DNA from: a virus
Direction: 5' to 3' (one strand)
Virus genome (UHGV): UHGV-1828728
DNA length: 39,345 nucleotides
Part shown: one piece after another, positions 4,548 through 27,094 of the stretch
Position numbering within the stretch: the stretch's first letter is position 1
Layout: each line of letters begins with the position of its first letter
Notes under the pieces: model-generated
The model's database searches: none
Told to the model about the DNA's origin: nothing
What the model saw: the letters and a program-made list of their open reading frames with translations, nothing else
Program-made: the position numbers and the translations under genes

Positions 4548-7500
4548 ATGAACAAGCTATCTATGGGGGTGTTTCGCTGTTCAAGTGTCAGCGAAATATT
4601 GAAATACATTAGTGCAATAACATCTCACCGAGCGCCGATTAGATACGGCGTGGAAAAGGTGGAAGGCAAAAGCTATGACCGACTACGCCGGGAGGCGAAT
4701 CAGAAGGCGATAGATTTGCTTAATTCGCTGGTGGACGGCGCGACACTGACAGATGAACAGCGCCAGATCCTGGCTGGGTACACCGGCGAAGGCGGCATTG
4801 GCGGGTCCGTCTCCGAATATTACACACCAAAGCCGATCGCTGAAGGTGTCTGGGAGATCATGAAGCTCTACGGCGCGGACGTAGGTAACACTCTGGAACC
4901 ATCGGCGGGAACCGGCGTTTTTAATGAGACAAAACCGGTTGGTACGGTGATGACCGCGACTGAGATCAGCAGTGTTTCCGGTCGTATAAACCAGCTGTTG
5001 CACCCGGAAGACAGCGTACAGATTTCTCCGTTCGAACAACTGGCTGTAAGCACGCCTAACGATTCATTCGACCATGTTGTGGGTAACGTTCCGTTCGGTG
5101 GTCGTGATAACACACGCAACATCGATAAGCCTTACGCAGAAGAAACGGACATGGGTTCTTACTTCATGCTCCGCATGCTGGACAAGATAAAGCCAGGCGG
5201 ATTCATGTGCGTGATTGTGCCGCCGTCCATTGTTTCAGGTTCAAACATGAAGCGGTTACGCCTGCGCCTATCACGGAAAGCTGAATTTCTTGGTGCCCAC
5301 CGCTTGCCTACCGGTACTTTTGACGCAAACGGGACCAGTACAGTTGTTGATGTGGTGCTGATGCGCAAACATCCGGCAGAGATGGCTGAGAAAATCCCCC
5401 TGGTGGATGAAAGCACTCTCGAATCGGCAAATGTGCTTTGGCCAACGTTTATTTCTGGCAAGTGGTTTGAAAAGGACGGCCGCCGGTTTGTTCATGGCAC
5501 CCAGGAAAAGGGCTTCCAGGGGCGTATTGAGGTTCGTGCCGACGGTCAGATTGATAACCAGGCTCTTAAAGCGAAGCTGATTCATCGTTTCGAAAGCCGT
5601 ATCGACTGGTCTTTGCTCGATATGGCTGAACCGTCACCGACCGCAGACGTTGTTGGTGAAGGGGAAATGCGCCTGATTAATGGCGTATGGCAAAAATATG
5701 CTGGTGGTCGCTGGATTGAAGCTGATGCCGGGAAGGAACTTAAGATCGATGCTGCCAGTTATGGCGCGGATAGCTGGGAGGCTCTTCAGCGTAACCTGAC
5801 TACAACAGAAGGCCGTCTCGGCATGACATTTACCCAGATGGCAAATGTCCGCGATAAGTACACCACATCAATCAGCGACGATATGGTGCAGCTGGTGGAC
5901 TGGATTAACAGCCAGCCTGAAAAATACCGTGAACGCTTGTATCGCGGGGCGATGATTGGCCGGATGTTAATTGAATATCAGGACATGAAGGCCGCCGGGC
6001 ATAGTGCTGAACAAATCGAACAGCAGCGCCTTTCTCTGGTATCCCGTTTGCAGGCAGAGATTGACCGTTTTGGTAACCCCGGTCGCGGTCCGATAGCGAA
6101 ATTGTCGGGGAGCGGTGCGCGCGCCTGGTTTGCTTTCCGTGGTGCAATTAAGCTGGATGGCACTATTTCTGACGAGCTGACAGGGAAGCTGGTTACGCAT
6201 GATTCCAGCGCAAGTTATGACTCCACCAGCTATCAGGACACCCTGCGTTATCTCTATAGCGATCTCACCCGCGATCCAATCCAGCTCGATGATTTCCGCC
6301 TTGCGTTTACCGGCGAACTGCCAGCCAGTGATGAAGAGTTGCTTAATTTATTGGCCAGCACCCCCAGCGGCGACATTAACGAGATAGTGGCTCCAAAACA
6401 GGAATTCCTCGCCACACTCCCCGACGGTCCAGTAAAGAACAACGTCCTTAATCAGCTGGCAGCTATCGAAGAGAAGCGCATCAAGACGCCAGCAGAGAAT
6501 ATCCGGTTTAAGCTCAATAGCCGTTGGTTCGACCGTTCCGTCATTCTGGAATTTTTGCAGGAAAACGGCTATCCGGATCTGCGCTATGTGCAGTCAGTGC
6601 AGCTGGAAGGCGACGAAATGGTTTCTGACACCTATCACGGTGGTGATGGTCTGTTCGTCGGGCACCGATACGGTGTCGTCCAGCGCAAGGATAAAGAAAC
6701 AGGTGAGATTCGCTACGAGTGGGACCGTAAATCAGGTGAAAACGCGACCGGGTTCCCGGCACAGCTGGAAAAGTATCTCAATGGTGCGCGTATCGGTGGC
6801 AAAGATAGCGCGACGGCGAACGGCTACCGCGAGCAGATGGCACTGCTTGAGGACCAGTTCAATAAGTGGATCAAGACGCACGATCGCTACGATGAGCTGG
6901 TTGCCAAATACAACGATGTGTTCAATAGCAATATCCCGTATGAACACTCTGGCGATCCGCTTGGGTTGAAGGGATTAAGCGGTAAGCGCCAGCCATTTGA
7001 TTACCAGAATAGCGAGGTGCGCCGACTGTCCGAAGATGGGCGCGGCATCCTGGGCTTCGGCACCGGGCTGGGTAAAACCACGACCGCGCTGGCGCTTGAG
7101 GCGTTCAACTATGAGAACGGTCGCTCCACCCGTACTGCGTATGTAGTGCCTAAATCAGTGCTGGAAAATTGGTATTACGAAGCAAAAGAATTCCTGAGTG
7201 AAGAGGCATTCAGTAACTACTTGTTCGTCGGTCTTGATGTGCTGATGGATGGCGATCAGATTCGCCAGGTGCCGGTGCTCAATGAGAACGGTAAACCTGT
7301 TCTTGGTACTGATGGCACTCCAGTTATGCGCGATGCTCTTAAGCTGGCAGATGAAGCCACTATCACGGCGCGGATGAACGCGATCCCGCACTCAAATTAC
7401 CGTGCAGTCGTGTTTACCAAAGAACAATACGCCCGCATTCCGCTACGTGATGACACCGTAGATGAGCATGCACAAGACATGCTTTATGACTTCGTTGCCG

Positions 7501-10500
7501 CCGGGCGCGTAGCCAGCGCAATGGACTCCGACTCCCACCGCAAAGAGGCGGCGCGTCGCCGGGTATTGTCGGAGTATTCAGATACCGGTACCGAAAAAGC
7601 AGAGAAGTATCCGTACTTTGAGGATATGGGCTTCGACAGCGTGATTGCTGACGAAGGCCACAACTACCGCAATAGCTATAAAAATGGTCGCGAAGCGTCA
7701 CAGCTGGCCTATCTGCCCACCAGCGCGGTGGCGCAATCGGCGCGAGATATGGCAATCAAAAACGCGTACTTGATGAAAAAGAATGGCGGGCGCGGACCGG
7801 TTCTCCTGACTGCAACACCAGTCGTTAACACCCCGATCGATGCATACAACATGCTTTCTCATGTTCTGCCGAAGGAATACTGGCAGAAGATGGGGATCTA
7901 CAGTCCTGATGACTTCGTAAAATTCTTCGGCAAGACCAGGCTGGAAACGGTACAGAAAATCAGCGGCGAAGTTGAAGAAAAAATGGCGCTGGTGGGTTTT
8001 GAAAACCTTGATGCGCTGCGCGGCATATTCCATCGCTGGACAACGCTTAAAACAGCGGAAGACGTTAAGGATACCGTGGAGATCCCGGAACTGGACGAAC
8101 ACCAGCAGGATGCACCACTTACTGAAGAACAACTGGCGGCGTATGAAGAATTGCGTCAGCAGGCGGAAGCGGCGGCCAAAGCCAACAATGGTGTAACGAC
8201 CTCGGTCAATGAAGACGGCGTGATTGAGCACGAGAAAGCCCGTCCGATCTTCTCAATAATCAGGGATATGGACCGCGTATGTACTGACATGGACCTGTAC
8301 TATCGCCGGATCACCTATCGTTTCCTGCCGGAGTACGCCGATGCGGTGCAGCAGCTGGCAGACAGTTTGCCTAAACAAGCCACCAGCGAAGACGACGACA
8401 GTGATGATTCAATCACGCAGCAATCGCAATACTCCCTGATAGATAAGGGCGAGTTTATTCAGTTGCAGGTTCCGGAAGCGTTCGAGCAGGAAGTGAATAA
8501 GCGCCTGGCCAGGTTTGGCATTGACGAACAGACCGTAACTCACCCCGTTACGCCCAAATACGCGAAGCTGATTGCCACGCTGAAGGAGTTTTTCCCGGAA
8601 GGGAAGCAAATCATCTTCACCGATGAAAAAACGCAGCACCAGAAGCTCAAGCGCATTATCTGCAATGCTCTTAACCTTGAACCTTCAAAGGTGGGGATAC
8701 TGAATGCTCAGACGGTTGCCGAGGCAGGTAAAACCGGTAAGAAACTGAAAGCGGTTAAACCGCCGAAAGAGTTACCGGATGAACCAACAGATGCACAGAT
8801 AGCGAAATACAACGAGCAAATGGCTCTGTATGACGCCTATATCGCGCAGCAAAATGAAATGTCGTTGGGCGGTCTGGAAAAGATTGCAGCCGACTTCCAG
8901 GAGGGCCGGACTCCGATCATCATCTGCAACAAAAAGGCAGAGGTGGGTATCAACCTGCATCGAGGAACGACTGACATCCATCATCTGACGTTGCCATGGA
9001 CTCCAGCCAGTATTGCGCAACGAAACGGTCGCGGTGCCCGAGTTGGCTCCAACCGTGCAAGCGTTCGCGTTCACTACTACTGCGGCAAGGGTTCTTTCGA
9101 TGAATACCGACTGAAGACGCTGAAGCGTAAAGCAGGCTGGATCTCCGATATCCTCCGTTCAGATAAGTCAGAAATGGAGAACGCCGACGCCAACGATATG
9201 ATCGAAATGCAGATGTATACCGCTAAGGATGATGGCGAACGTCTGGCAATGATGCAGGTTCAAATGGATAAGGCGAAAGCCGCGCAACGCGCTCGCCAGA
9301 AAGAACAGGCTACTATCGACCTTCAGAACTACATCAAGGCGCAGCACGCAGCTGGTGAGGATGTGGAGGTGCTTACCGCTGAATTAGAGCGAAGCAAAGC
9401 GGAACTTGAAAAGACCACCGCCGACGTCGCCAAATTCAAACAGGCGGTAATGGCCAAAGCAGCTGATAACGCAGACTGGAAAGCCCGCTGGGGTAGCGTC
9501 CATCACACAGACCGTACGTTGTTAGCACAGTATCGCGCGTCGTTGAAAAGCGCCATTCAGCGCAAGGCTAATATCTCTCAGGCCATCTCCCGCTATGAGA
9601 AATTATTGAACCGTACTCAGAAGGCCGCGACGGATATCAAACGCCTGCGCCCGCTGGTGGAGGATGCAATAAATAAAGGCATTCTGGATGTTGATCCTGA
9701 TCTGGTTAACCATGCGAATGAGTTCCTTGTTATCGGCGATCGCTCATGGCGTGTAGGCCAATACTATGATTGTGCCGGTGATATCGTTCGCATTAAGTCG
9801 CTGGACTTCGACAGCCAGCGCGCAGACGTGGAGATCATCTTTACCTTCAAAGGCACCAAATCGGGTAACTGGGATGTGAAGACGCTGGATAAACAGGTTG
9901 ATGTAACTCCCGATGAAGATGCTGTTATGCAGAAAATCAGTGGTGGCGTCTCCATCGCCGGGATTAACGACATCATTTCCTGTGACGATTTCTACCGTTT
10001 CCAGCAGCGCGGCATGATCAAAATCACTGACTCATACGGCGTTCAGACTACAGAGTCAGGCTATAGCATCGATTTTGTTGGTACCTATACGGACCCACTG
10101 AAGCATGCGGTTTACCCGGATCGCCGTGACGGCGCGCTGAAGTCGTCAATTGCAAAATGGGTGCTTGGTATGATGTCGGAAGGGAATAACCGCCAGATCC
10201 GTTCGGCAGAAACATTCCTGGTTGAACTGTTTGGCTCCAATTATGGCGATGTAATCGCGTCATACGGAGATACGCTATCCCCTGAAGCAATTCAGGAGAA
10301 AATAGCGGATGCGATCGCCAGAATGCCGGAAAAAACAAGCCAGGGGGCTACTCGTAACGGGGATTCTGAACTTGAAGTCACCAATGCCATTTTCGGTACC
10401 AATGAGTTCCGGGCGTCAGATTATGAGATCACCACAGCACAGTTTGGCACCATTGGCATTTACAGCAATAAAGCCGAGATCAAGCAGGCAATGGACGCAG

Positions 10501-11264
10501 CAAGCGCGCGCATCGCAGCAGAACGGGAAGCCAATCTGAATCATGCAGTCGCCGCGCTGACTCAATCGTGGGTAACAGCAATCAGGGAGGCCGCCACCAC
10601 AGGGAAAATCACACCTGCAATAGCGGATGTCGTAAACGACGGCTCTAAATTTATGGATGCCTATCAAATGGATGCGGTGAAGTTGCCATCAGCCTATGGT
10701 CAACTCAGCTATCGCATGACCTACAACCTGGTATCAATGTTTTCCGACCTTGCCATCCTTGGGCTGGTGGATCTTAACGAGGTTACGCCGGAATTGCTCA
10801 GCATGCGCAAGAATCATGTGGAGATATTGCAGAGAATTAACACGGTTCTTGCCGGGCGCACCGATGAAGAGAAACAGGCCGACGCTGATCGGATAAACCT
10901 AGCCCTTGGCAACATCACGGAGGAAGAGATTGCCGCCAGAAACGAGAAACAAGAAGAGTTATCATCAATACAGGGTGATGCCACCAGCATAGCTCAGTCT
11001 CTTGGTCTGAATTATCGCGTATCCACCGCCGACCTGAAGATGATGTACGCACCAAAATTCGCCGCTGGCGAGGTATTTGGGCTTCAGGAAGCCTCAGGCA
11101 TGAAAGGCGTTCTTTTCCGTGCGAAAGACGCAATCAAGGCGAAATTCGGCGCTCGCTGGCTGCCAGCGAAGGCGAAGAACAGCGATTTCCCGGGTAACTG
11201 GTGGATTATCGAGACAAAACACAACGTGGCGGACGTTCTGGCCGTCATCCAACAATACGCATAA
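4548..11264 (+). CDS. darB: DarB-like antirestriction protein (methyltransferase-helicase fusion)
   Basis: 2238-aa ORF with ATG and AAGGA RBS. N-terminal region has an N6-adenine methyltransferase-like motif (VGNVPFGG); central region has SF2 helicase motifs (GFGTGLGKTT Walker A, VIADEGHNYRN DEGH box). Size and architecture match P1 DarB from memory. Confidence 0.85.
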   Translation: MNKLSMGVFRCSSVSEILKYISAITSHRAPIRYGVEKVEGKSYDRLRREANQKAIDLLNSLVDGATLTDEQRQILAGYTGEGGIGGSVSEYYTPKPIAEGVWEIMKLYGADVGNTLEPSAGTGVFNETKPVGTVMTATEISSVSGRINQLLHPEDSVQISPFEQLAVSTPNDSFDHVVGNVPFGGRDNTRNIDKPYAEETDMGSYFMLRMLDKIKPGGFMCVIVPPSIVSGSNMKRLRLRLSRKAEFLGAHRLPTGTFDANGTSTVVDVVLMRKHPAEMAEKIPLVDESTLESANVLWPTFISGKWFEKDGRRFVHGTQEKGFQGRIEVRADGQIDNQALKAKLIHRFESRIDWSLLDMAEPSPTADVVGEGEMRLINGVWQKYAGGRWIEADAGKELKIDAASYGADSWEALQRNLTTTEGRLGMTFTQMANVRDKYTTSISDDMVQLVDWINSQPEKYRERLYRGAMIGRMLIEYQDMKAAGHSAEQIEQQRLSLVSRLQAEIDRFGNPGRGPIAKLSGSGARAWFAFRGAIKLDGTISDELTGKLVTHDSSASYDSTSYQDTLRYLYSDLTRDPIQLDDFRLAFTGELPASDEELLNLLASTPSGDINEIVAPKQEFLATLPDGPVKNNVLNQLAAIEEKRIKTPAENIRFKLNSRWFDRSVILEFLQENGYPDLRYVQSVQLEGDEMVSDTYHGGDGLFVGHRYGVVQRKDKETGEIRYEWDRKSGENATGFPAQLEKYLNGARIGGKDSATANGYREQMALLEDQFNKWIKTHDRYDELVAKYNDVFNSNIPYEHSGDPLGLKGLSGKRQPFDYQNSEVRRLSEDGRGILGFGTGLGKTTTALALEAFNYENGRSTRTAYVVPKSVLENWYYEAKEFLSEEAFSNYLFVGLDVLMDGDQIRQVPVLNENGKPVLGTDGTPVMRDALKLADEATITARMNAIPHSNYRAVVFTKEQYARIPLRDDTVDEHAQDMLYDFVAAGRVASAMDSDSHRKEAARRRVLSEYSDTGTEKAEKYPYFEDMGFDSVIADEGHNYRNSYKNGREASQLAYLPTSAVAQSARDMAIKNAYLMKKNGGRGPVLLTATPVVNTPIDAYNMLSHVLPKEYWQKMGIYSPDDFVKFFGKTRLETVQKISGEVEEKMALVGFENLDALRGIFHRWTTLKTAEDVKDTVEIPELDEHQQDAPLTEEQLAAYEELRQQAEAAAKANNGVTTSVNEDGVIEHEKARPIFSIIRDMDRVCTDMDLYYRRITYRFLPEYADAVQQLADSLPKQATSEDDDSDDSITQQSQYSLIDKGEFIQLQVPEAFEQEVNKRLARFGIDEQTVTHPVTPKYAKLIATLKEFFPEGKQIIFTDEKTQHQKLKRIICNALNLEPSKVGILNAQTVAEAGKTGKKLKAVKPPKELPDEPTDAQIAKYNEQMALYDAYIAQQNEMSLGGLEKIAADFQEGRTPIIICNKKAEVGINLHRGTTDIHHLTLPWTPASIAQRNGRGARVGSNRASVRVHYYCGKGSFDEYRLKTLKRKAGWISDILRSDKSEMENADANDMIEMQMYTAKDDGERLAMMQVQMDKAKAAQRARQKEQATIDLQNYIKAQHAAGEDVEVLTAELERSKAELEKTTADVAKFKQAVMAKAADNADWKARWGSVHHTDRTLLAQYRASLKSAIQRKANISQAISRYEKLLNRTQKAATDIKRLRPLVEDAINKGILDVDPDLVNHANEFLVIGDRSWRVGQYYDCAGDIVRIKSLDFDSQRADVEIIFTFKGTKSGNWDVKTLDKQVDVTPDEDAVMQKISGGVSIAGINDIISCDDFYRFQQRGMIKITDSYGVQTTESGYSIDFVGTYTDPLKHAVYPDRRDGALKSSIAKWVLGMMSEGNNRQIRSAETFLVELFGSNYGDVIASYGDTLSPEAIQEKIADAIARMPEKTSQGATRNGDSELEVTNAIFGTNEFRASDYEITTAQFGTIGIYSNKAEIKQAMDAASARIAAEREANLNHAVAALTQSWVTAIREAATTGKITPAIADVVNDGSKFMDAYQMDAVKLPSAYGQLSYRMTYNLVSMFSDLAILGLVDLNEVTPELLSMRKNHVEILQRINTVLAGRTDEEKQADADRINLALGNITEEEIAARNEKQEELSSIQGDATSIAQSLGLNYRVSTADLKMMYAPKFAAGEVFGLQEASGMKGVLFRAKDAIKAKFGARWLPAKAKNSDFPGNWWIIETKHNVADVLAVIQQYA

Positions 11265-11297: not shown

Positions 11298-11738
11298 ATG
11301 GCCACACTATCTGATACAATAAAACCGAATAAAACATATCTTGAGGCGGTACTCCGTACAGCGTTGTTAGGAAAGACAGAAGACGAATACGTTGATTTCT
11401 TCCTGTCAGGGCTACGCGGGCGATTACTGAAAAATCCCCGCCTGTACCGCAGCTATGGTCCATACTGGCCGGAAATTAAAAAATTATTACTGGAGCGCGG
11501 TTATGGTAATTTCGGTCGTCTCGTTGACCGTGACGTTCGCAAAATTTACCGTTATGACCGCCCGGCGCTAACACTCATAGCCGCGACGCTCTACAGCCAG
11601 GAGCGTTTTGATAATGGTCAGATATACTCAGCCTGGCATTTACTGCCAGTGCCTGAAGAAGTTGACGACCAGGACTATGAGTTTGAGTCTTACGATTTGG
11701 AAGTTGAAGCCTTGGCACAGGCTGGAGAGAAAACTTGA
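11298..11738 (+). CDS. ulx: Ulx-like protein (downstream of darB)
   Basis: 146-aa ORF directly after darB in the same orientation; named by P1 synteny (darB-ulx-lxc) only. No SD seen before the ATG. Confidence 0.5.
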   Translation: MATLSDTIKPNKTYLEAVLRTALLGKTEDEYVDFFLSGLRGRLLKNPRLYRSYGPYWPEIKKLLLERGYGNFGRLVDRDVRKIYRYDRPALTLIAATLYSQERFDNGQIYSAWHLLPVPEEVDDQDYEFESYDLEVEALAQAGEKT

Positions 11739-11983
11739 AAAAGCGATACTACACAGTAAAGCATGGGACGCTACGAGCATTACAAGAGTTTGCTGATAAG
11801 CATAACGTTGAGGTGCGCAGGGAAGGGGGAAGTAAAGCTCTGCGCATGTACCGCCCGGACGGGAAATGGCGTACGGTCGTCGATTTCAAAACTAACAGCG
11901 TTCCCCAGGGCGTCCGCGACCGGGCATTCGAAGAATGGGAGCAAATCATCATAGATAATGCATTGCTCCTGAATGCTGATTAA
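11735..11983 (+). CDS. lxc: Lxc-like small protein (C1 co-repressor in P1)
   Basis: 82-aa ORF with TTG start overlapping the ulx stop (TTGA); position and size fit P1 lxc from memory. Confidence 0.45.
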   Translation: MKKRYYTVKHGTLRALQEFADKHNVEVRREGGSKALRMYRPDGKWRTVVDFKTNSVPQGVRDRAFEEWEQIIIDNALLLNAD

Positions 11984-11987
11984 GTTT

Positions 11988-12020
11988 GTCTAGCCCGGTT
12001 AATACCGGGCTGGTTTAGAC
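11988..12020. terminator. hairpin terminator at the lxc / cassette junction
   Basis: Imperfect hairpin GTCTAGCCCGG-TTAATA-CCGGGCTGGTTTAGAC between convergent genes; T-richness after it is only moderate. Confidence 0.45.
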
Positions 12021-12041
12021 ATCTTAAGTGGGTGTTAATTT

Positions 12042-12551
12042 TTAATTATGGTTAATCATATCTAACAGTATTTTTAGCTTCCTGCATGTGTTATCAATAT
12101 CTTTACATAATATGACATCAAGGATGTTTGGTAGTCCTAATACCATATGAGAAATGAAACCCTCGCCAACTTGTAGATTATGGGTAGTCTCATCTGGATT
12201 CACGTATTCAATGGTTTTAGTTTTATTTATCCCATAATCTTTATAACAGATGATTACAGGAATGTTCTTCTGTTCAGCAATCTGCAACTCTATTCCTAGC
12301 CCTGTTGATGGAAAACTACATTCTGCAATTATTACATCAGATTTCTCAACCATATCTCTGTCCCAAATGTAACAAAGTCTAGATTTGTTACTTTCAGGGC
12401 GCTTTGATAATTCTGGGTCACTATTTATCAAAGCATATTTTACGTTGTTATTTTGAGATAAACCTTTTGCAAGGCTGTGAATCCAATTACTGTACTCATG
12501 GAAAATTTCCCTTGGAACATGAGTTAAAGCGCATGCGATATATATATTCAT
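12042..12551 (-). CDS. nucleoside 2-deoxyribosyltransferase-like (N-glycosidase fold) protein, cassette gene B
   Basis: 169 aa; N-terminal MNIYIACAL and internal DVIIAECSFPSTGLGIELQIAEQKNIPVI resemble the NDT/Rcl family strand and catalytic-Glu motif (GLGMELGYA in Lactobacillus NDT, from memory). ATG overlaps the stop of gene A (TAATG). AT-rich. Confidence 0.75.
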   Translation of the reverse strand: MNIYIACALTHVPREIFHEYSNWIHSLAKGLSQNNNVKYALINSDPELSKRPESNKSRLCYIWDRDMVEKSDVIIAECSFPSTGLGIELQIAEQKNIPVIICYKDYGINKTKTIEYVNPDETTHNLQVGEGFISHMVLGLPNILDVILCKDIDNTCRKLKILLDMINHN

Positions 12552-13591
12552 TAAGAAGCAGACCTTACGTTTGGGATAAGAAATTGGTGTCCAGTAATTT
12601 CAGATGAAATTGCATCTATAAACTGTGACGGAGATTGTTGAATAAATTCAGCAATAATCCAGTTTTCTTTTTCATTTAGTAACTGTCTTAGCTTAAGTGG
12701 GTCATACCGACATAGCTCACTTAATCGATGCATAGCTGCTAGGGTTATAACCAATGGCGATATTGAAACAGAAGTATGCTCAGATTGATTGTTTTTACGT
12801 TTGAGATACCAAAGAGTCTCTGCGCCATTGATATAGTAAAGATTTCTTCTTATTTTTTGATGAAATTCAGTTAATTGCGGCATGTTGGACGATTGATTTT
12901 CATTAAAATCAAGTAATGATTCTACTGATTTTATTTTGTACTTTTCTCTTTCAAACAATTCGAACGCTGGCGGTAGAATGTCGAAAACTGTGTCGAACCG
13001 AAAATCCTTGGATAAAATCGCAGTGAAAAACAGGCTATTGTCTGACTCATTCAAAACGAACTCAGCATCGATCAGTGGAATAAATATATCATCAGTTACA
13101 TCATAAGTAAGGCAATATGTACGATGAATATATGGCAATCCAGAAAAAAGGTTTTTTATATTGTACACCCCCTCATGAGAGGTGCCGTCAATATATTTTG
13201 AAAAAGACGGAAGTATACCCTCATTTTTTATTTTTACTTTTATATCAGATAAGTTATCAATTTGGGCTGCATTTTCACCCCTAGCAACACCATGATGCTG
13301 TTTGAAGTTTATATTGCGAGATGAAAGTAACGCCTTTACTGCATTCATGAATGAATAATAGTGCAAAAGTGGGGCTGATTGGTTGGGTAAACCATTGGCC
13401 GCCTGATTAAATACTTTTGCTTGCTCCCAATAAAAAAGAGCCTCATCTTTTTCGTTTCGCTTTAACCAGAGTTCGACAAAATCCCAATGACTGTATGTAA
13501 GTACATTCCTTGCGGTTAGGTCAGGGTTTAATGATGCTTTATGAGGCTTCATGACCTTGTTCCTAATTTTCAGCGGCTTAATATTCATCAT
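12551..13591 (-). CDS. hypothetical protein, cassette gene A (no recognisable domain)
   Basis: 346-aa ORF with tandem ATG start, GGAGG SD 9 nt upstream, sigma70-like promoter further upstream; no catalytic motif identifiable by eye. Confidence 0.75.
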   Translation of the reverse strand: MMNIKPLKIRNKVMKPHKASLNPDLTARNVLTYSHWDFVELWLKRNEKDEALFYWEQAKVFNQAANGLPNQSAPLLHYYSFMNAVKALLSSRNINFKQHHGVARGENAAQIDNLSDIKVKIKNEGILPSFSKYIDGTSHEGVYNIKNLFSGLPYIHRTYCLTYDVTDDIFIPLIDAEFVLNESDNSLFFTAILSKDFRFDTVFDILPPAFELFEREKYKIKSVESLLDFNENQSSNMPQLTEFHQKIRRNLYYINGAETLWYLKRKNNQSEHTSVSISPLVITLAAMHRLSELCRYDPLKLRQLLNEKENWIIAEFIQQSPSQFIDAISSEITGHQFLIPNVRSAS

Positions 13592-13620
13592 TGTAATAAT
13601 CCTCCACCCAAAGTTACTAG

Positions 13621-13649
13621 ATTGTAAAATATATATTTTTGTTCCACAA
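13621..13649 (-). promoter_or_regulatory. sigma70-like promoter of the AT-rich cassette
   Basis: Minus strand: -35 TTGTGG (13644-13649), 17-nt spacer, -10 TACAAT (13621-13626), about 30 nt upstream of the gene A ATG; no C1 operator-like sequence seen here. Confidence 0.45.
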
Positions 13650-13681
13650 CAAAAATCTCTATTGGCTACTGACGTAATTAA

Positions 13682-14323
13682 TTATAAATAGTTTTCTTTG
13701 CCGGTAAGTAAGCCTTGAGGAACTCGCTTGTCGGCTAGACATTGGGTTCCGCGAATTATGTTAATCAGAGGGCTTAGTAACGATGGTTCCTGGCGGGCCT
13801 CAACTTCTCCAGCCATTGCCCTGATGTAGTCGGCGCTTGCAACGTTGTTATATTCCGTTGCGAAGCAGCATAACAACGACAGAACGTGCTCTGTCGTTAT
13901 TTCGCTCCAGTTGATGTTGAAAAATTCATCGCCTTTTTTGTCGTGTTCGGAATCGAAGATGCTTTGGTGGAGGATGTATTTGCCGGATTCTTTGCGCGGT
14001 AACTTGATCGCTTTCTGGCGTTCCAGCTCCTTGTAAATCTGCATTGCTTCAATTAGTACCGGCCTGCCGTTCATGAAGGGATCGCGCAACCTTACACGCT
14101 GGCCAACTCGACCCGTAATAAAGCTGTTTTCCTCTTCCACCAGCACGATAAAACCCTTTTCCTCTTTTTCTCGCAATTCGCGCAGCAGCTGGAGTTCCAT
14201 ATCGCGGCGGCGTTCAGGGTAGCTGGTCCGCTCAGCCATTATCAGCTCATTGTTGATCCATGCGGCAGTCATTGACGCCGGTTTGCCGACGCTCATCGAA
14301 ACAACGCATATTTTCTTATCCAT
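13682..14323 (-). CDS. mat: Mat-like protein (P1 backbone gene adjacent to ref)
   Basis: 213-aa ORF from ATG 14323 (AGGGG SD; the track start 14350 is GTG); normal GC; sits next to ref as mat does in P1. Name by synteny only. Confidence 0.5.
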   Translation of the reverse strand: MDKKICVVSMSVGKPASMTAAWINNELIMAERTSYPERRRDMELQLLRELREKEEKGFIVLVEEENSFITGRVGQRVRLRDPFMNGRPVLIEAMQIYKELERQKAIKLPRKESGKYILHQSIFDSEHDKKGDEFFNINWSEITTEHVLSLLCCFATEYNNVASADYIRAMAGEVEARQEPSLLSPLINIIRGTQCLADKRVPQGLLTGKENYL

Positions 14324-14511
14324 AGCGCCCCTACAAAAAAGAAAAGCCACCAGCGGCGGCTTAGCAATACAACTGAAGGTAGCGCCCGGTACTCAGACTG
14401 TGCCGTCCATGGAATATTTGAAAAGGGATCCATCCGTACCGGGCATGTGATGATTCTGACTGAAGTCACTTGTCAGTTGTCAATTATTTCAGATTAAAAA
14501 TAATATATTTA

Positions 14512-25375: not shown

Positions 25376-26026
25376 TCAGCTTTCGTTGGCATGGTCCACC
25401 TCATGCTTTTCAGCCACCAGCGGCAATAAAGCCCTGGCCATCTTATGAACCAATAGTGCATCAATAATGCCAAGCGTATGCCCCGGCTTAATGTTTAATG
25501 CCGCCTCAAGGTGACACCTTTCCAGGTCACTTTTCTCGGCTTGTTTATGATGATCTGGTGTAATAACGTCGCCCAAAACACGGCTAATTCTTTCTCGTAA
25601 TTGCTGGGTGCCAGCACACTTGATCGCTGTATCGTGGAGACGGTTAACCAGTTCGCGATAAACATGCGGCTTAATGCGGATACGTTCACCGGTGACGCCC
25701 TTTCCTGGCGCTGGCACCGAACTATCCGGAATATCCGGATAGTTGCCAGCCTCGTAAGCTACCCGCAGCCAGTGCATGAATGTTTCAGTGGACACACAAC
25801 CACAGTCCACATCGATTTTTCCGCGTTGCTGTTCCAGCCAATGCTCAAAATTCAATCTACACGTATTACTTTCATGTTGCTCTTTTTGTCTCAAGGCCAG
25901 CATCTGCTGGGCTATTTCCAATACTTCATCTGCCGTATATCCAGCACCGTGACCATACATTTCGATACGGGAAATAATCTCTGATATGCGCTCTTCAGTG
26001 ATTCTGGTCATTTCTTTTTGCGCCAT
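25376..26026 (-). CDS. hypothetical protein
   Basis: 216-aa ORF; ATG overlaps the stop of the upstream membrane-protein gene. Confidence 0.6.
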   Translation of the reverse strand: MAQKEMTRITEERISEIISRIEMYGHGAGYTADEVLEIAQQMLALRQKEQHESNTCRLNFEHWLEQQRGKIDVDCGCVSTETFMHWLRVAYEAGNYPDIPDSSVPAPGKGVTGERIRIKPHVYRELVNRLHDTAIKCAGTQQLRERISRVLGDVITPDHHKQAEKSDLERCHLEAALNIKPGHTLGIIDALLVHKMARALLPLVAEKHEVDHANES

Positions 26027-26382
26027 TTCTTTTCACATTCCTTAGTCCATTCTTCAATGTTCATTTTGGCAATATCAGTCATTCCATCACCTAAGAAATA
26101 CTTTTTCCGGTATGTCTTGCACTTAAACCACACTACAACAGCCACCAGCCAGAAAATAAAAGGCCATACAGCAATACCAACGACAGCCGCGATAAAGCCC
26201 AATAGCCATAAATGAAGCTCTCCAACTTCTGTTTCCGGCAATATTCTTAAAGAATTAAACAGCAGGATGAACGAATGGTCGTATGCATTGGCAGTATAAG
26301 ACATGCAATCCATATAATTAAAGTCATAGCCTGCGGCTGCCGCCCATAATGGGCGGTCAAGAAAATGTTTTAGTGTCATCAT
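26008..26382 (-). CDS. hypothetical membrane protein
   Basis: 124 aa with a long hydrophobic segment (LWLLGFIAAVVGIAVWPFIFWLVAVVVWF) and lysine-rich C-terminus. Confidence 0.55.
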   Translation of the reverse strand: MMTLKHFLDRPLWAAAAGYDFNYMDCMSYTANAYDHSFILLFNSLRILPETEVGELHLWLLGFIAAVVGIAVWPFIFWLVAVVVWFKCKTYRKKYFLGDGMTDIAKMNIEEWTKECEKKWRKKK

Positions 26383-26388
26383 ATAAAT

Positions 26389-26682
26389 TTAAGGTTCAGA
26401 CCAGTTATCTTCAATAGCAATGCTTAATCTTTGTAGCCATTCTGCTAATTTCAGCATTGCTTCTCTTTCGCTTAAACCACGAGGAAAATCATCAAGCGAA
26501 ATTGTTGGCTTGAATCCCCCGCAATTATCCATTTCAACTGTCAGATTTTGTTCCAGCACGGTATTTCTTACGCGGCTATTGTGCCGGAGCAAATATACTG
26601 AGCGTGATTTATTGGTTTTGTGGTCTAGCTTATATTCGGTAAGTATCATCTGGCTTTTGCCATGATTATTACCTCTCCACAT
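26389..26682 (-). CDS. hypothetical protein
   Basis: 97-aa version from ATG 26682 with GAGGT SD; the track ORF extends to a TTG at 26778. Confidence 0.45.
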   Translation of the reverse strand: MWRGNNHGKSQMILTEYKLDHKTNKSRSVYLLRHNSRVRNTVLEQNLTVEMDNCGGFKPTISLDDFPRGLSEREAMLKLAEWLQRLSIAIEDNWSEP

Positions 26683-26860
26683 ACTTACCTCACTTAATAA
26701 AACAACTCCATGCGTAGTTGATGATTTTTTCCCACGTAATATAAATCTGCACTCCGGCAGTAAAACCAAAGCCAACAATTGCTGAAAAAATCAAAACATT
26801 TACTTTTGACATTATAAATTTTCTCTCGGTGTCGTAGGTGATAGCACCATAATTGATAAT

Positions 26861-27094
26861 TTAGTGAGTTAGCAGTTCCATTTTTTTGATGATTTCCGCA
26901 TGAGCATCATCGTTATCAACACTTAGCTCGTTTAATGCTTCTCGCACTACATCAACTTCTTCAGGCTGAAAGAAGTCGTCGCGGTAATCACCAAATAGAA
27001 CCGAAACCAGCCTGCCACCAGCAACATCAAGATTGGCGCTAACAGGTGGCTCTTTGCCATCCTCAAATTCGACTACAAAAGTTAATTTTCCCAT
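26861..27094 (-). CDS. hypothetical acidic protein
   Basis: 77 aa; ATG with GGGGGT SD at 5 nt. Confidence 0.5.
   Translation of the reverse strand: MGKLTFVVEFEDGKEPPVSANLDVAGGRLVSVLFGDYRDDFFQPEEVDVVREALNELSVDNDDAHAEIIKKMELLTH

Follow-up and report, generated by a model that had tools for sequence, protein, structure and literature searches.

The window, by which we mean the whole stretch of DNA that was analysed, comprises 39,345 nucleotides of the virus genome UHGV-1828728 and is a P1-type phage-plasmid, encoding DarB (4548-11264, plus strand), Ulx, Lxc (11735-11983, plus strand), Mat, Ref and Cre. A cassette of two minus-strand genes adjoins darB, ulx and lxc and is flanked directly by lxc and mat; IncY plasmid prophages of Escherichia coli carry an identical region. 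The upstream gene A (12551..13591) encodes a YaaC-family protein of 346 aa, and the downstream gene B (12042..12551) a protein of 169 aa that, from its sequence and modelled structure, looks like a nucleotide N-glycosidase of the nucleoside 2-deoxyribosyltransferase (NDT)/DNPH1 fold. The region upstream of the operon covers 13592..13681 (minus strand), and the complete lxc-mat interval with its cargo is ~1.7 kb long (11984..13681). GC content is low here, with 34-39% in the 1-kb windows of 12001-14000 compared to ~51% on either side. We propose that YaaC and the NDT-fold enzyme are a new candidate defence pair, in which gene B, as a deoxynucleotide N-glycosidase resembling DNPH1, would deplete DNA precursors, and YaaC would be its sensor or regulator. 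Judged on sequence and models, we give this proposal about an even chance of being correct.

The open reading frame (ORF) of gene B starts with ATG and has 169 codons and a stop codon. An earlier sequence-only reading of this DNA had given its coordinates, its length and its peptides correctly, but had missed its minus-strand orientation; read on the plus strand, 12042-12551 is riddled with stops. The product, called "hypothetical protein" in public records, has the N-terminus MNIYIACALTHVPR (MNIYIACAL...) and includes DVIIAECSFPSTGLGIELQIAEQKNIPVI. When the single sequence was searched with Pfam PF05014 (Nuc_deoxyrib_tr), it matched with E=1.8e-4 and 22.1 bits, which is below the curated cut-off of 28.8 bits. 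A database search yielded 238 homologues of ~170 aa, and all 34 family members that were aligned matched PF05014 at E<=0.01 (best 2.2e-8); a precomputed PF05014 match is also present on many gene B homologues. Among PDB sequences, the family profile matched DNPH1/Rcl (6e-5) and the NDT 7m5h (4.6e-4). The AlphaFold monomer model reached a predicted local distance difference test score (pLDDT) of 96.1 and a predicted template modelling score (pTM) of 0.89, and shows the flavodoxin-like NDT fold. In a Foldseek search with this model, DNPH1, the 7m5h protein, the CMP N-glycosidase BcmB and NDTs ranked first, with E-values down to 3e-6. Because the profile matches, the confident model and the Foldseek ranking agree, we regard the assignment of the modelled protein to the NDT/DNPH1 fold as secure. 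The NDT/Rcl fold put forward in the sequence-only reading is thus borne out by profile search, structure prediction and fold comparison alike.

To compare active sites, we combined the alignment of the 34 homologues with a global profile alignment (hhalign) to human DNPH1. For the latter we used what we take to be the human DNPH1 sequence, which agrees with all residue numbers in PMC10603095 and with the fragment matched in the PDB. Y4, D64 and E88, the last being the Glu of GLGIELQ, are invariant (34/34), S82 is kept in 33 of the 34 homologues, and position 134 is S in 27 and T in 7. In the profile alignment, Y4, D64, S82, E88 and S/T134 of gene B are equivalent to Y24, D80, S98, E104 and S128 of DNPH1, respectively. 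The two segments that the sequence-only reading had likened to the N-terminal strand and the catalytic-glutamate segment of Lactobacillus NDT therefore contain the counterparts of DNPH1 Y24 and E104. Our reading of PMC10603095 is that S128 of DNPH1 is probably a second phosphate ligand, contributed by the helix of the partner subunit. On this alignment, Y4, D64 and E88 are the predicted catalytic triad of gene B, and S82 and S134 its predicted 5'-phosphate ligands. In DNPH1, E104 is the nucleophile and S98 binds the 5'-phosphate (PMC10603095, PMC4081090), and a coordinating serine on a DNPH1 helix is mentioned as well (PMC10603095). Deoxyribose is selected by the residue at the DNPH1 Y24 position; MilB has F17 there, and the F17Y substitution turns this enzyme from CMP to dCMP (PMC10603095, PMC4081090). 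The invariant Tyr4 and both serines therefore predict a 2'-deoxynucleoside 5'-monophosphate (dNMP) as substrate of gene B. Of the substrates that had been considered in the sequence-only reading, this favours the deoxynucleotides over a signalling nucleotide.

A second tier of longer relatives (P0413-P0453, 250-565 aa) has the NDT-like domain in full, but Phe in place of Tyr at the sugar-selector position. Since these distant relatives carry Phe, the selector site appears to vary with specificity, and by sequence Tyr is a feature that marks the gene B family. We also considered whether the second-tier proteins might belong to retrons as effectors or represent fusions with known domains. This was rejected, as their long, charged C-terminal extensions had no convincing match in Pfam or PADLOC; a weak JetC match (E=4e-4) was the sole one found.

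Gene A is a strong member of the YaaC family (PF14175, E=5.9e-46). Its stop codon overlaps the ATG of gene B by one base (TAATG at 12551) and, by this arrangement, gene B is predicted to be translationally coupled to it. Fold comparison alone revealed a HEPN fold in YaaC, a feature of the upstream partner that had escaped the sequence-only reading; the YaaC family profile gave no match among PDB sequences. The HEPN-fold helices lie at residues ~35-91 and ~279-333, and an alpha/beta domain of 175 residues (~100-275) is inserted between them. We considered YaaC as a canonical HEPN RNase and rejected this, since no position-conserved Rx4-6H RNase motif was present across 30 YaaC homologues. The invariant polar residues in these homologues are H100, H156-R157, H288-R289, R295-Y296, E315, D326, E331 and R343. 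Because the HEPN catalytic motif is lacking, a role of YaaC as sensor or regulator is likelier than one as RNase.

Upstream of gene A, a Shine-Dalgarno sequence (GGTGGAGG, 13608-13601, minus strand) could be read from the sequence. By eye we noted a weak, putative sigma-70-like promoter on the same strand, consisting of TTGTGG (13649-13644), a 17-nt spacer and TACAAT (13626-13621). This pair scores 8/12 and was not listed by our scan, which had a threshold of 9/12. An AT-rich inverted repeat (TTTTTGTT/AACAAAAA, 13655-13636), also read from the sequence, overlaps the -35 element. The scan for consensus promoters and terminators gave fewer promoter-like sites than shuffled sequence and called no terminator. 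At the other end of the cassette, between the convergent lxc and gene B, a GC-rich hairpin (GCCCGG-TATTAA-CCGGGC, 11993..12010) was found by eye; it has no T-run and is possibly a bidirectional terminator.

The association of the two genes is highly conserved. In 35 of 38 sampled loci (31 from a scan of one genome per species and 7 from context look-ups), YaaC was the same-strand gene directly upstream of the enzyme, 0-70 bp away. The same order was found in 8/8 further loci from an E. coli chromosome and viral contigs. When starting from YaaC instead, the enzyme was found 3' of it in all three loci, from Kangiella, Aeromonas and Nitrospina. In total, YaaC adjoins a gene B homologue in 46/49 loci from many phyla, and one of the three exceptions is a truncated remnant. 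Chromosomal copies of the operon occur in Alpha-, Beta-, Gamma- and Deltaproteobacteria, Bacteroidota, Planctomycetota and Spirochaetota, and only 7 viral contigs harbour the pair, 4 of them P1-like. Among plasmid records with lxc, 77/699 carry most of the YaaC-NDT region. Most of the cassette is also present in 106 of 5,426 complete E. coli genomes (~2%), nearly always on plasmids.

In the two other exceptions, YaaC is replaced by a protein of ~330-350 aa, here called DCD-like, which contains a domain of the dCTP-deaminase/dUTPase fold (PF22769, E ~1e-26). Its junction with the enzyme gene is overlapping, like that of YaaC. The DCD-like family has 245 detectable members, several of them on contigs exactly as long as those of NDT-family matches, and no PADLOC model matched this partner. 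In the Vibrio cholerae superintegron, a 42%-identical DCD-like member is followed by a clear gene B-family enzyme (E=4e-64). YaaC is also named in several publications about integron cassettes of oral metagenomes, which, taken with the Vibrio locus, hints that such modules may move between genomes as integron cassettes. Loci combining a DCD-like with an NDT-like protein are L018:5009-6540, L028:4946-6531 and L060:5001-6513. As this partner acts on deoxynucleotides, it supports, at the level of sequence, a deoxynucleotide substrate for gene B, and the exchange of partners suggests a modular toolkit of "nucleotide-attacking" pairs. The C-terminal region of the DCD-like protein is moderately hydrophobic, and a membrane anchor was considered; the hydropathy scan was borderline, with 2/4 proteins above threshold, and we do not claim one. 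At another locus (L062:5001-7425), located on an integrase/VapE-type mobile element beside a type IIG restriction-modification gene, GTP cyclohydrolase II and a HAD hydrolase come after the DCD-like protein in place of an NDT-like enzyme. The set is possibly another nucleotide-destroying module.

We delimited the cassette by alignments to the empty site of RCS47 and to SJ46, and by BLAST against phages and plasmids. Likeness to other P1-like elements stops just past the lxc stop codon (11983) and resumes at ~13,650-13,680, at the mat stop. The cassette is therefore exchangeable cargo in the lxc-mat slot of P1. This slot is empty in RCS47, whereas P1 itself carries the type III restriction-modification system EcoP1I there (res, with an IS5-interrupted mod region). 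In SJ46 it contains one RelA/SpoT gene of 373 aa, whose Tyr155 fits the Y155A mutant of CapRel-SJ46, a proven anti-phage defence (PMC9712102). We further surveyed six plasmids (the slot loci are labelled L009, L010, L011 and L043-L048). Two have a lone SIR2-family gene in the slot, one a type III restriction-modification system followed by a SIR2-family gene, inside which the shown stretch ends, and one a GNAT acetyltransferase; the remaining two plasmids have EAL-domain genes there, in one case together with a helix-turn-helix gene and an IS5 copy.

The GC-rich hairpin right after the lxc stop codon differs between cargo variants, as the window (11993-12010), RCS47 and SJ46 each have a distinct one. 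This places the recombination boundary between the lxc stop codon and the hairpin. On the other side of the slot, the longest mat ORF of the window (13682-14350) starts with GTG and encodes 222 aa, and Mat in public records of identical sequence has 213 aa (642 nt). A second dip in GC content (38.7% in 26001-27000) contains two short ORFs on the minus strand (26008-26778; 124 and 129 aa), the first of which has a hydrophobic stretch resembling a membrane segment. A further cargo or accessory site may lie here.

Outside P1, the neighbours of the pair are typical of defence islands. They comprise an AAA_15/AAA_21 ATPase with a UvrD helicase at one locus, PycTM with a DUF2726 helicase at another, and, at separate loci, a PLD nuclease, AbiTii and HicAB. 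A divergent pair on an E. coli chromosome (L049:1-18507), whose enzyme is 72% identical to gene B, has a BrxR-type regulator and an integrase remnant on one side and, on the other, a Dpd cluster for 7-deazaguanine DNA modification (DpdD, PLD, DEAD helicase, PTPS). Gene B, YaaC, mat and ref had no match at E<=1 in PADLOC-DB v2.0.0, and neither NCBIfam nor PHROGs gave a meaningful result for gene B or YaaC. In our literature searches we found no publication describing a YaaC-NDT pair; a 2013 survey of HEPN domains reported NDT domains fused to AbiJ N-terminal domains and did not mention YaaC.

In the proposed mechanism, Glu88 of gene B would attack C1' of a dNMP and form a covalent intermediate, and cleavage would free the base and deoxyribose 5-phosphate. 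In the lysogen, YaaC would restrain or direct this activity. Upon infection by a second phage, gene B would destroy DNA precursors and thereby block phage replication, which would amount to immunity via nucleotide depletion at the glycosidic bond. Several points weigh against this proposal. The PF05014 score of the single gene B sequence stays under the curated cut-off, and the hhalign probability of the global alignment to DNPH1 is only 70%. The phosphate loop GSIRGG of DNPH1 and its R30 are not kept; gene B has ACALTHVPR instead, with R30 aligned to H11, or to T10 by simple register. The base-recognition element E55/H56 of DNPH1 has no alignable counterpart, which leaves the base, and even the phosphate state, of the substrate uncertain. 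Because neither this element nor the loop is matched, we file gene B by sequence as DNPH1-like and not as a DNPH1 orthologue. Gene B in turn has a region without counterpart in DNPH1 (36-50, YAL-NSDPQL) and a family-specific insertion of 22 residues (~111-132) with invariant residues of its own (Y116, NPD, LQ-GEG). As to context, the P1 slot also houses uncharacterised GNAT and EAL genes, so that guilt by location is indirect, and PADLOC, having no model for either protein, lends no independent support, although this is consistent with novelty. Finally, the sole characterised defence enzyme of the NDT fold is reported to hydrolyse NAD(P)+.

That precedent suggests that gene B might be an NAD(P)+ glycohydrolase effector as in Retron-Eco1, which YaaC would release on sensing infection, so that NAD+ depletion leads to abortive infection. 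We consider this rather unlikely, since the gene B family has an invariant Tyr4 where the ribose-accepting MilB has Phe, both serines that contact the 5'-monophosphate in DNPH1 are retained, the alternative partner is a deoxynucleotide enzyme, and no reverse transcriptase or msDNA (multicopy single-stranded DNA) locus adjoins the pair. The precedent is itself unsettled, as an earlier Ec86 preprint saw depletion of adenine derivatives and not of NAD+. The pair could also serve chiefly to stabilise the phage-plasmid as a toxin-antitoxin or addiction module, in which one protein is toxic (as HEPN-fold RNase or N-glycosidase) and the other neutralises it, with phage protection as a secondary effect. 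Since many toxin-antitoxin systems are defence systems, this overlaps with our proposal and is not exclusive of it. As the primary function we find it unlikely: YaaC lacks the Rx4-6H motif, the pair is chromosomal in most sampled phyla, and the characterised cargo of the P1 slot is defence. By analogy with DNPH1, which acts on hydroxymethyl-dUMP, and MilB, which acts on hydroxymethyl-CMP, the enzyme might instead selectively hydrolyse modified deoxynucleotides made by phages (5-hydroxymethyl-dCMP, 5-hydroxymethyl-dUMP), a non-suicidal, pool-sanitising immunity to which we assign a small probability. Hypermodified phages (T-even, SPO1-like) would then be cut off, P1 and its host with their ordinary bases would be unharmed, and YaaC and the DCD-like protein would serve as exchangeable partners, supplying the enzyme with substrate or gating it.

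The sequence-only reading had offered both defence and counter-defence as roles for gene B. In the latter case, gene B would serve the phage-plasmid by breaking down a signalling nucleotide of host immunity, or a modified nucleotide directed against P1. This would fit the location beside darB and ulx, which are anti-restriction genes, and the fold class of NDT, SLOG and TIR, which handles nucleotide-derived signals. Yet the same operon is found on chromosomes across 7 bacterial groups, inside defence islands, few viral contigs carry it, the known cargo of the slot is defence, and the obligate YaaC partner would be left unexplained. The probability of counter-defence is therefore slighter still. 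Our data favour defence, because the conserved operon sits both in chromosomal defence islands of many phyla and in the defence slot of P1. Least probable of all the readings is a metabolic role without any part in conflict, such as salvage or a step in small-molecule biosynthesis comparable to the release of free modified bases by MilB and BcmB. Biosynthetic neighbours (ThyA/MilA-like) were absent from every locus inspected, the genes are patchily distributed, mobile and of foreign GC content, and they occur in defence islands and in a cargo hotspot.

If the pair does protect against phages, it would be a compact and widespread immune module, found across many phyla and in ~2% of the complete genomes of E. 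coli. Removal of the base from deoxynucleotide monophosphates would be new chemistry for bacterial immunity, the large and uncharacterised YaaC family (PF14175) would obtain its first functional context, and the HEPN fold would have been reused without its RNase motif. The lxc-mat slot of P1, source of EcoP1I and CapRel-SJ46, is a practical hunting ground for new defence genes. The specificity of gene B is also of biochemical interest, since DNPH1, to which this bacterial enzyme is related, is currently a drug target in cancer.

Among known systems, DNPH1/Rcl, a dNMP N-hydrolase and 5-hydroxymethyl-dUMP hydrolase, shares the fold and a similar size with gene B and is its best PDB profile match. 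All five DNPH1 residues compared above have conserved counterparts, and the predicted substrate class is likewise dNMP. In contrast, the two are only ~15-18% identical, the GSIRGG/R30 loop is replaced and the 22-residue insertion is extra; DNPH1 is a housekeeping gene, whereas gene B forms an operon with YaaC and is carried by mobile elements. From MilB and BcmB, N-glycosidases of CMP and hydroxymethyl-CMP, gene B differs by Tyr4 in place of MilB Phe17, which predicts deoxyribose for the gene B family. It also has T10 or H11 where MilB has the R23/K residue that reads the 5-hydroxymethyl group, and no linked hydroxymethylase gene. From NDTs (PF05014, from Lactobacillus and others), gene B differs in that its context is not salvage, and the conserved phosphate-binding serines suggest that it acts on nucleotides rather than nucleosides; transferase and hydrolase chemistry are not separable by sequence.

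The effector of Retron-Eco1 (Ec86) is an anti-phage N-glycosidase of the NDT fold with the catalytic Glu E106, held inactive by its partner until infection. It has the fold and the catalytic Glu in common with gene B. It differs in its larger size, in its control by a reverse transcriptase-msDNA filament and in its reported substrates, NAD(P)+ or adenine derivatives, while the partner of gene B is a HEPN-fold protein; in the loci inspected, no reverse transcriptase was found beside the pair. PADLOC includes models of retron effectors, and none of its models matched gene B or the longer second-tier relatives. YaaC differs from known HEPN proteins (UPF0332/AF0298, HEPN-MNT toxins, Abi HEPN) in lacking Rx4-6H and in its 175-residue alpha/beta insertion. 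The nucleotide-depletion defences (dCTP deaminase, dGTPase) follow the same logic as proposed for gene B, namely starving the phage of DNA precursors, and a further tie is that a dCTP-deaminase-fold protein can stand in for YaaC. They deaminate or dephosphorylate dNTPs, whereas gene B is predicted to cut the base off dNMPs. NDT-fold effectors and nucleotide-depletion immunity are thus already known, while the composition of the YaaC-NDT gene pair and its predicted chemical step are not among the known kinds.
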